Shown here piece after piece: positions 33,001-35,222 of a stretch of DNA of 35,222 nt. The stretch comes from a virus (lineage: Duplodnaviria; Heunggongvirae; Uroviricota; Caudoviricetes), in the IMG/VR virus record IMGVR_UViG_2541047123_000042, positions 1 to 35,222 of that record. One strand, written 5' to 3'. Every line of letters starts with the position of its first letter. Positions within the stretch are counted from its first letter, which is position 1. Position numbers: made by a program.

Positions 33001-35222
33001 GAAAACAACCGACCAGACATTGATTCGAAAGTTACCAGACGGAGAAATACGCCGCTACGACAGACAACAGAACATAATCTGTGGCGAGTGCCGGAAGAGT
33101 GAAGTTATGCTGCGTGTACTGGCGTTCTATCAGGGCAATTTTCAGGAGGCGGTATTGTGAGTGAATTAGCTATCAGGCTTCAATTGTCGCTGGCATTCAC
33201 ATCAAAGGAGAAGAGCATGGAAATAAAACCAGAAGATGAGTTAAGCAATATCGTTTTATTTCCGGTAAAAGAGGATGACCCACGTAATCAGGTTAATTTT
33301 CTTTATGAGCCATCGGAAAGAGCATATTGTCATCACGCCTCTGTTCGGGTTGACGAAAAAGAGCGTCAGGTCCGCTGTAAAATCTGCGGGTGCAGTTGTG
33401 GAGCCATTTGACTGGATGCTCTCTGTGGCGAAAAGAGAAACCAGACTGGCAGATGATGTAAGGATCTTGCGCCAGGAGGAACGGGAAGGGCGGAGAAATA
33501 TAGAAAAGCTAATTCAGATTGAGCGTAACGTGAAAGCGCGGATACGCAGGGTGACAAAATCCAGAACTGAATAATTAAATTTAGCTCTGTTAAAAATTTA
33601 ATCCTTAACCGGAGGTATATCAATGTCAAACGCACAGAAAGTTATTAACGCTGAAAAATATAACGAGTGGGTGAAAAAGTTCTCAGAGCAGATTTTTAAA
33701 ATTACTGGCGACGAGAATGCGGCAAAAAATGAATTAGAGCCGTGGACACCTGAAGGTGTCGACCCAAATTATTGCTGGTGGGATGTTGATCCAGTTGATG
33801 CTGCAAATGAAGCTATGAGTTATCACAACGATTAATGTCAGGAGGCCGCCCGAAAGGGCGGTAATGAAAAGTGACTGAATTAACCAAAGAGAAATTAATC
33901 GAAGAAGCCAAATTAAAAATAGCGATTGCGAAATGCTACCCCAATTCAGGGATGGCACGGGTAGAGGGCGAGTTATTCAAAATTGCACTGGCATCGCTGG
34001 AAGCAGAACCGATAGCGTGGGAATGCGGTGAAAACATAATCCTGTTTAACCCTGACACAGTTGAAGCATACGCAAAACGTGCGGAAATATCACCTAAACC
34101 ACTATTCTCCGCGCCGCCAGCGCTGGTAGTGCCTGATAAGTTGCCGCGTGAATACAGAAACGGTTGGCCTCTTGCGTATAGTGATTATGCTGAAGGCTGG
34201 AACGACTGCCGCGAAGCCATGCTTCAGGGAGATAAATCATGATTAATCGTATCAAGCTGGAGCACATCCTCGAATATGCCAGGCAGCAGAGGCATATTGG
34301 TCAGCATTGTAAAATTCCACCAGGAGATATGGTTGAAATCATGGAGATTGCCATGCGCAAGGCTGGCAATTCTCCGGTAACTCCGGATGGTTGGATAAGC
34401 TGTAGTGAGCGAATGCCGAATACCAAAACAGCCGTTCTTGTTGCCGTGGAGTTTGACAGGAAAGGTGACTGGCGAATGAAATTGGCTACTTACATCCCGG
34501 GGCATCCTGACGCTAATGATGGGTGGATAATTCCTGGTGCGTCGTAGAAACCGTCACACTGGATGCCGCTACCAGAACCGCCGCAGGAGGTGCGCCAATG
34601 ATCTGGCCTGAAGCCTTTGCAATTACAGGCGTTGCTATAGCTATTGATTTTTTAGTATATGTTATTTGTCGGTGGGGGTAAAAACGTTCGCCGGGATTCA
34701 CACCAAAGGAGGGAATATGTCGGATGATATTTCACTGGCAATGGAAGGTGCGCTGGCTGTTATTGCTGTTGTGGGCGTTTACTGCCTGGTTGTGTTTTTG
34801 ATGGATCGACTAGGGAACTGAATTCATTACGATATGGGAATTCCCATATCGGGTAAGAACGGTTTGCGGTAAAGCGAGAGTTAAGTAGAATTGCTGCGGG
34901 TGCTTGAGGCTATCTGCCTCGGGCATGAACACCAACGGCAGATAGAGAAAAGCCCCAGTTAACATTACGCGTCCGGCAAGACGCTTAACATTAATCTGAG
35001 GCCATATCTATGCTCTACACACGTAGGTTAGCCTCTTACGTGCCGAAAGGCAAGGAGAAGCAGGCTATGAAGCAGCAAAAGGCGATGCTAATCGCCCTGA
35101 TCGTCATCTGTTTAACCGTCATAGTGACGGCACTGGTAACGAGGAAAGACCTCTGCGAGGTACGAATCCGAACCGGCCAGACGGAGGTCGCTGTCTTCAC
35201 AGCTTACGAACCTGAGGAGTAA

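Follow-up and report, generated by a model that had tools for sequence, protein, structure and literature searches.

Features of a probable complete hok/mok/sok type I toxin-antitoxin cassette, hokD allele, in a lambdoid prophage of O157:H7-type Escherichia coli

The hokW-sokW toxin-antitoxin (TA) pair, which is of type I, has been characterised experimentally: HokW is a toxin, which sokW neutralises when expressed from its own promoter, and mutation of the -10 element abolishes neutralisation (Takada et al. 2021, PMC8621323). The -10 of sokW was mutated with primer YO-421, changing TAGGTTAG to CCGGCTCG on the hok strand; the antitoxin was inactivated, and the toxicity that appeared was relieved by sokW supplied in trans (PMC8621323). 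In Sp5, mitomycin C treatment is followed by the disappearance of sokW RNA and by RecA-dependent production of HokW, which is localised in the inner membrane, and phage release is two-fold higher with hokW-sokW (PMC8621323). In the system of plasmid R1, the 5′ tail of Sok is the element that first recognises the mRNA (PMC1635323).

The window, i.e., the whole stretch of viral DNA analysed, 35,222 nt in length, ends with a region that represents, with a probability of about 0.9, a complete hok/mok/sok type I TA cassette of the 'hokD' allele with its full regulatory leader. The cassette as such is already known, being represented by hokD in RefSeq, by a 'MokW-like' PHROG and by a characterised homologue with 94.8% identity. 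Every testable feature of the family was found; only the relBEF arrangement is missing, and this arrangement defines the K-12-type rearrangement, not the family. The preliminary description of this DNA, which reported a hok-type toxin locus with mok/sok control, thus correctly recognised a copy of a textbook cassette, annotated as hokD in hundreds of RefSeq genomes, and the matches to Pfam, PHROG and Rfam RF01794 given below assign it to the type I cassettes. The protein-coding part is represented by two overlapping reading frames:

35067-35222, plus strand: hok toxin ORF from ATG to TAA, 51 aa, with the Shine-Dalgarno sequence (SD) AAGGAG at 35052-35057
35010-35222, plus strand: mok ORF of 70 codons, read in the hok frame and ending at the hok stop codon

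The peptide encoded by 35067-35222, MKQQKAMLIALIVICLTVIVTALVTRKDLCEVRIRTGQTEVAVFTAYEPEE, matches the Pfam family PF01848 HOK_GEF over model positions 1-42 of 42 (E=1.2e-23, 82.9 bits at a cutoff of 22) and PHROG 251 'MokW-like host killing' (E=2.8e-33), as is typical for a small hydrophobic toxin of the Hok/Gef family of about 50 aa; in relatives it is annotated in RefSeq as HokD, WP_000813254.1. The TAA codon of hok is the final triplet of the window, so the Hok ORF is intact, as had been described, and its 3′ UTR is cut off. The mok start lies 57 nt upstream of the hok ATG and is preceded by its own SD, GAGG at 34998-35001, 8 nt 5′ of the mok ATG. This geometry is that of the annotated mokC/hokC of K-12 and mokW/hokW of phage 933W, and translation of hok is probably coupled to that of mok. 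The UACG at the Tyr47 codon was considered as a candidate site of editing by TadA and rejected, as the local tRNA-Arg-like hairpin sought there gave no signal (z=-0.04).

Upstream of and overlapping these frames, the following elements of the hok mRNA were found:

34863-34891, plus strand: putative hok/mok mRNA promoter, with a weak -35 TTTGCG at 34863-34868, a 17-nt spacer and the -10 TAGAAT at 34886-34891
34898-35072, plus strand: hok mRNA 5′ leader, delimited by Rfam RF01794, an inverted repeat and folds
34898-34909, plus strand: tac, GGGUGCUUGAGG
34899-34918 with 34937-34956, plus strand: tac stem, a 20-nt imperfect inverted repeat
34952-34956, plus strand: ucb/anti-SD GCCCC within the hok leader
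34951-35003, plus strand: Sok-target hairpin within the hok leader

An Rfam scan of the whole window gave two matches over the gathering score, namely, DicF, considered below, and RF01794 ('sok antitoxin, CssrC'), which was found on the plus strand at 34898-35072, scores 111.7 bits (gathering score, 59; E=7.8e-25) and is full-length, covering model positions 1-157 of 157. Since RF01794 is matched on the hok-sense strand, starting with GGGUGCUUGAGG, the model in practice describes the leader of the hok mRNA, and Sok proper corresponds to the complementary strand of a part of this match. On the evidence of the RF01794 match, the inverted repeat and RNA folds, the conserved structured leader of the family, comprising the tac stem, ucb/anti-SD and Sok-target hairpin, is present, and the fold-back elements reported earlier in front of Hok are substantiated by the RF01794 match and by the 20-nt inverted repeat of the tac stem. 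The limits given for the locus in the preliminary description, 34830-35222, hold from approximately 34855, where homology to other hok cassettes (933W, K-12 hokC) begins. The segment 34830-34851 is a perfect 22-bp palindrome belonging to the upstream flank; it folds well (z=-3.9) and has no T-run, and it was rejected as a hok control region, being absent from 933W and K-12 hokC.

The -10 of the putative hok/mok promoter, as read from the sequence, is separated by 6 nt from the mRNA start; its register is shared by the -10 of K-12 hokC, TATAAT, and 933W has an identical sequence. A consensus sigma-70 scan of 34600-35222 revealed neither this promoter nor that of Sok above thresholds, because the -35 of the former and the -10 of the latter each fit the consensus at only three of six positions; the assignment of both therefore relies on homology and register, not on the scan, and for hok/mok it is positional and putative. 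The sole match of the scan on the plus strand, 34985-35014, is situated inside the leader and is probably due to chance.

The antisense component is encoded on the opposite strand:

35025-35053, minus strand: predicted Sok promoter, with -35 TTGCCT at 35053-35048, a 17-nt spacer and -10 TAACCT at 35030-35025
35018 to 34948/34942, minus strand: predicted Sok antisense RNA of 71-77 nt, with coordinates transferred from sokW and sokC

According to the preliminary description, a Sok promoter could not be verified from the sequence alone; the promoter predicted at 35053-35025 of the minus strand is identical base for base, in its -35, spacer and -10, to that of sokW of the Stx phage 933W/Sp5, and its TAACCT matches exactly the -10 targeted by YO-421. 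The -10 ends 6 nt before the predicted Sok start. The 5′ end at 35018 was taken from the annotated sokW and sokC, and the 3′ end is 34948 by sokW and 34942 by sokC; the annotated sokC of K-12 starts opposite the ninth nucleotide of mokC, and this position, transferred to the window, is 35018, in agreement with sokW. The search of the minus strand proposed earlier thus yielded a candidate Sok in which an unpaired 5′ tail of approximately 15 nt (35018-35004) leads into a long hairpin with a GC clamp (35003-34951), and the 3′ end is rich in U; the folding energy of the 77-nt form is -31.8 kcal/mol (z=-4.65). The architecture is that of the annotated sokW and sokC and of R1-type Sok, and a cis-encoded antisense Sok of the family, with a promoter in the mok-hok interval, a 5′ tail and a terminator-like hairpin, is therefore recognisable; its transcription from the minus strand in this copy is predicted. 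Lack of any antisense element and a disrupted leader had been named as signs of an inactive locus; here, the predicted Sok and the full leader are both present.

The 3′ elements were analysed in relatives. The first 64 nt past the hok stop codon are conserved in E. coli TW14359, strain E2865 and 933W and include fbi, CCTCAACGCACCC, which is complementary to the 5′ GGGTGCTTGAGG except for one bulge; between TW14359 and E2865, conservation extends over the first ~85 nt, and both have a GC hairpin and a T-run after fbi. Among the viral contigs, the 77 that extend far enough 3′ all contain fbi, 69 of them exactly and 8 with a 1-nt variant. As fbi and the terminator are present in every close relative examined, their presence beyond position 35222 in this copy is very likely.

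Folding of the mRNA switch was performed with the TW14359 copy, which is 99.8% identical to the window over 663 nt. In the minimum free energy (MFE) structure of the 414-nt TW14359 mRNA, nt 1-12 pair with CCUCAACGCACCC in the 3′ UTR (-171.8 kcal/mol, z=-7.45); RNAalifold of five diverged loci, including an R1-type plasmid locus, retained this 5′-3′ helix with one compensatory change of U-A to C-G. Constrained folding of the full-length RNA favoured the closed tac/fbi form over the tac/ucb form by 11.3 kcal/mol. After removal of 41-53 nt from the 3′ end, the open tac/ucb form, in which the 5′ end holds the anti-SD GCCCC (34952-34956) and the mok SD is freed, comes within 1.2-1.8 kcal/mol of the MFE or coincides with it. 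The MFE structure of the 370-nt 3′-shortened mRNA contains a local 5′ hairpin instead of the tac/ucb stem, but constrained folding shows the two to be nearly isoenergetic, so the MFE alone is not decisive. In these models, the folding reproduces the closed-to-open switch described for plasmid R1 (PMC9841398, PMC1635323).

By homology with hok/sok of plasmid R1 and hokW/sokW of the phage, transcription, processing and toxicity in situ would proceed as follows. The weak promoter with the -10 TAGAAT would produce a stable mRNA of approximately 410 nt from about position 34898, in which the 5′ tac pairs with the 3′ fbi just past the window; this pairing would leave the mok SD paired to the ucb anti-SD, with mok and hok untranslated and Sok unable to bind. 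Slow 3′ trimming would strip off fbi, and the 5′ end would refold onto ucb, freeing the mok SD and exposing the Sok target. The short-lived Sok, transcribed from the opposite strand from about 35018, would pair via its 5′ tail with the translation-initiation region of mok, blocking translation of mok and hence the coupled translation of hok, and the duplex would be marked for RNase III. Once Sok is no longer synthesised, whether the element is lost, the prophage induced or transcription shut off, translation of the processed mRNA would yield the 51-aa Hok, which would depolarise the inner membrane.

The sequence context indicates the origin of the cassette. Positions 5431-25000 of the window are collinear with E. 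coli O157:H7 genomes at 99.3% identity, and the last 5.2 kb are 99.9% identical to TW14359 by BLAST; the host is an E. coli of O157:H7 type, and the element is a lambda-like (lambdoid) prophage. In the RefSeq annotation of TW14359, hok is 'hokD' of a lambdoid prophage adjoining a truncated ompW. The gene order there is integrase, excisionase, exonuclease, dicB, (DicF), ydfC, repressor/cro and replication genes, followed by DUF1627, DUF977, small genes, DUF551, a 34-aa ORF and hokD, and downstream of hokD by a rem-like gene, DUF968, rusA and the Q antiterminator; this is the layout of the Qin prophage of K-12. In the window, the cassette likewise lies in the early region, downstream of replication genes and of a DUF551 gene, and the second Rfam match is:

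28114-28165, minus strand: DicF, over the Rfam gathering score

Gene content downstream of hok differs between TW14359 and E2865. Compared to TW14359, the window shows signs of decay, namely, a nonsense codon in the DUF551 gene (34546) and a 1-nt insertion with a frameshift in an upstream gene (33388).

The absence of a relB/relE pair upstream, observed earlier, was borne out by tblastn searches of the whole window (35 kb) with RelB and RelE of K-12, which gave no match better than E=0.07; the relBEF arrangement of K-12 Qin, with relB and relE immediately upstream of hokD, is not present. Near-identity of the O157 locus to K-12 sets in about 15 nt 5′ of the hok ATG and extends over the CDS, 3′ UTR and following gene; upstream of this breakpoint, K-12 has relE in place of the leader, and hokD of K-12 is therefore a truncated form. 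With 34898-35090 (leader and hok start) as the query and a coverage of at least 80%, the intact leader was found in 4287 of 5426 complete E. coli genomes; the K-12 relE-hokD junction is covered in 1173 of them, and strain E2865 carries both a leader-type hok and the junction. Among 80 IMG/VR viral contigs with an identical Hok, the full leader is present in 77 and the relE junction in two. On these alignments and counts, relBE-hokD of K-12 appears as the derived, leaderless, minority form. Since the intact leader is the commoner of the two, 'missing relBE' should not be flagged as unusual: the intact hok/mok/sok is the more common arrangement, and relBE-hokD of K-12 is the rarer one.

A separate observation concerns a short segment within the cassette:

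35004-35024: hypervariable patch, comprising the predicted Sok 5′ tail and the Sok start site and, on the plus strand, the region from the mok SD to codon 5

Among 78 viral-contig loci encoding an identical Hok, this patch of 21 nt is represented by 16 alleles. In these loci, the patch has a mean of 0.31 pairwise differences per site, the leader elsewhere 0.06 and the CDS 0.006; common polymorphisms occupy 14 of the 21 columns of the patch versus 8 of the 148 columns of the remaining leader, and the mok ATG inside the patch is invariant. E. coli genomes contain up to 9-10 matching places each. Tentatively, and by homology with the Sok tail of R1, diversifying selection may act on the patch and render hok/sok cassettes that reside together orthogonal to one another; the rival reading attributes its diversity to relaxed constraint on the N-terminus of Mok together with recombination. 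Of two pairs of viral contigs compared, each pair from a single source genome, one has different patch alleles and one the same allele. No prior description of hypervariability of the Sok tail was found in the literature searched, which did not cover the classic hok-family papers. If there is such selection for orthogonality, the patch could help to explain how many paralogous RNA antitoxins coexist in a cell without cross-talk, and antisense strategies against Sok would be allele-specific.

As for the role of the cassette, it would most likely consist in help with lysis or phage release upon induction, by analogy with hokW-sokW. Retention of the prophage, the main alternative, or phage exclusion is possible, as hok/sok of R1 stabilises plasmids and excludes T4 (PMC8621323, PMC10305079) and hok genes are approximately four-fold enriched in prophages (bioRxiv 10.1101/2025.08.07.668861); however, the sole direct experiment on a close relative, hokW-sokW of Sp5, gave a gain in phage release rather than defence, and hok is not enriched beside defence systems (bioRxiv 10.1101/2025.08.07.668861). 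Help with lysis, retention and defence are not mutually exclusive.

It is unlikely that the cassette is a relic in a decaying prophage, intact in sequence and physiologically silent like the five chromosomal hok loci of K-12. Chromosomal hokA, hokB and hokC gave neither post-segregational killing nor activation by rifampicin (bioRxiv 10.1101/2025.08.07.668861), and since E. coli chromosomal hok loci have been tested without post-segregational killing, intactness of sequence is no proof of activity; neighbouring genes of this prophage carry the nonsense codon (34546) and the frameshift (33388) relative to TW14359. The K-12 copies are visibly damaged, the leader of hokD being replaced by relBE and the 3′ UTR of hokC being cut by IS186. 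In the window, however, all recognisable regulatory elements are intact, RF01794 is matched over its full length, the promoter of Sok does not differ from that of sokW, which has been tested functionally, and hokW-sokW, with 94.8% identity, is active. Strong conservation across the 78 viral contigs, seen in the hok CDS, in fbi and in the leader apart from the patch, argues for purifying selection.

It is highly improbable that the product is a 70-aa in-frame Mok-Hok fusion from 35010 instead of a separate 51-aa Hok, with the upstream hairpins belonging to an ordinary 5′ UTR: one uninterrupted ORF does span 35010-35222 with GAGG 8 nt 5′ of its ATG, but the internal ATG at 35067 has an independent strong SD (AAGGAG, 35052-35057), the match to the Pfam model is confined to residues 25-66 of these 70 aa, Hok is invariant in contrast to the hypervariable residues 2-6 of Mok, the in-frame layout is also that of mokC/hokC and mokW/hokW as annotated, and in R1 it is the translation of mok that matters, not the Mok product (PMC9841398).

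The complete hok/mok/sok cassette is most similar to mokW/hokW/sokW of 933W (GenBank AF125520) / VT2-Sakai, with 94.8% identity over 363 nt of promoter, leader and CDS, and both are located on lambdoid phages of O157:H7. 933W agrees with the window in the offsets of the mok and hok starts, in the in-frame position of mok and in the 5′ end of Sok, and the Sok promoter, tac, ucb and extended Sok hairpin are identical; the seven substitutions in the leader are all clustered in 35003-35022, which corresponds to the 5′ tail predicted for Sok and to codons 2-5 of mok, and the leader is identical outside this segment. The two differ by several substitutions at the C-terminus of Hok, FTAYEPEE in the window and FVDYESEK in the translation of the 933W DNA. 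The upstream neighbours and the terminator also differ, and the 933W cassette is found close to one end of the linear phage record, among other genes, whereas that of the window is downstream of replication genes.

Compared to hokD of K-12 (relF of relBEF, Qin cryptic prophage), the sole difference in the CDS is CTA versus TTA, both encoding Leu. The 3′ UTR of K-12 hokD, with fbi and the terminator, is nearly identical to that of TW14359, and it occupies an equivalent place in its prophage: dicF and dicB lie upstream of it, and rem-like, ydfU/DUF968 and Q genes downstream. In K-12, however, relB-relE stands in place of the promoter, tac, ucb, mok and Sok, while the window has the full leader. 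The hokC (gef)/mokC/sokC locus of K-12 has the same architecture and register, with the -10, tac GGGTGCTTGAGGCT, ucb AGAGAAAAGCCCC, a mok that opens 57 nt upstream of hok in the same frame, and a Sok whose start lies at the ninth nucleotide of mok, as in the window. The hairpin of sokC, a 59-nt RNA, is 18 nt shorter than that of the window, and IS186, inserted 19 nt past the hokC stop codon, removes the fbi region. The hok/mok/sok (parB) system of R1, plasmid-borne and with a proven role in stabilisation, contains the same set of elements, namely, tac/fbi, ucb, the mok SD and the Sok tail and hairpin; the identity between R1-type and hokD-type loci is only moderate, ~45-50% of alignment columns, R1 Hok and HokW have 44% amino-acid identity, and in R1, the loop of the tac stem is longer and the Sok hairpin shorter than in the window.

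A patch of 21 nt at positions 35004-35024, spanning codons 1-5 of mok together with the 5' tail predicted for Sok, is hypervariable. In 78 viral contigs, all with an identical Hok peptide, 16 alleles of this patch were found; its diversity is approximately 5 times that of the remaining leader and approximately 50 times that of the coding sequence, and the mok ATG inside it shows no variation. It is possible that the patch is a specificity determinant separating paralogous hok/sok loci.

The codon for Tyr47 of hok is located in a UACG context (35205-35208). For mRNAs of hokC, hokD and hokE, A-to-I editing by TadA was reported to recode Tyr at the UACG site to Cys, which serves as the second Cys of a disulfide in their products (bioRxiv 10.1101/2025.08.07.668861). 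RNA folding gave no signal of a local hairpin around UACG at the Tyr47 codon of the window.

Two very small hydrophobic ORFs directly precede hok:

34598-34681, plus strand, 27-aa ORF MIWPEAFAITGVAIAIDFLVYVICRWG
34717-34821, plus strand, 34-aa ORF MSDDISLAMEGALAVIAVVGVYCLVVFLMDRLGN with a strong AAGGAGG SD

Neither ORF had matches in Pfam or PHROG. The 34-aa ORF is annotated in relatives as hypothetical protein WP_001278450.1, and a relative of the 27-aa ORF (MTWPEAF...) is likewise located 5' of hokW in the Stx2 phage 933W.

Immediately 5' of the hok promoter, a perfect 22-bp palindrome, CGATATGGGAATTCCCATATCG (34830-34851), with an EcoRI site at its centre, was found. Folded as RNA, it yields -14.5 kcal/mol (z=-3.9), and a T-run is absent. 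The palindrome was considered as part of the hok cassette and rejected, since it is missing from the flanks of both 933W and K-12 hokC; accordingly, it was placed outside the cassette. Possible roles are that of an operator or of a 3' hairpin belonging to the small gene upstream.

Three differences from the near-identical O157:H7 strain TW14359 were found, namely, a change of TGG to TAG at 34545-34547, truncating the product of the DUF551 gene from 120 to 102 aa; an additional G at 33388, causing a frameshift in an upstream hypothetical gene; and a lone A-to-G change at 34857, 6 nt 5' of the hok -35 element. Such changes point to prophage decay or to errors in sequencing.

Positions 1-5430, containing phage tail genes, lack collinearity with those O157:H7 genomes that match best, the alignment of which begins only at 5431. 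This break in collinearity at 5430/5431 indicates a mosaic junction in the upstream prophage. Judged by how the collinear region is annotated in TW14359, the central part of the window contains the effector genes nleA, nleH, nleF, nleG and espM1, as well as several IS elements.

The hok-bearing prophage also encodes an sRNA:

28114-28165, minus strand, full-length DicF antisense sRNA (Rfam RF00039, 76.7 bits against a gathering score of 48)

It is located between homologues of dicB and ydfC, and DicF is placed likewise in the Qin prophage of K-12. In E. coli E2865 (NZ_AP018808.1; positions 1628-2309 of the extracted sequence L010), the leader and the start of hok match the window at 100% identity over 193 nt, and a pair comprising a RelE/ParE-family toxin and an HTH antitoxin is encoded approximately 100 nt downstream of the hok region on the opposite strand. 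Taken with the location of relBE upstream of hokD in K-12, the presence of the downstream pair in E2865 suggests that type II TA modules have landed repeatedly in the neighbourhood of hokD. In K-12 hokC, the end of IS186A is located 19 nt past the stop codon (positions 432-452 of the locus sequence L004), and its mRNA therefore lacks the native 3' fbi region; this locus exemplifies how hok loci of K-12 become disabled, in contrast to the copy in the window.
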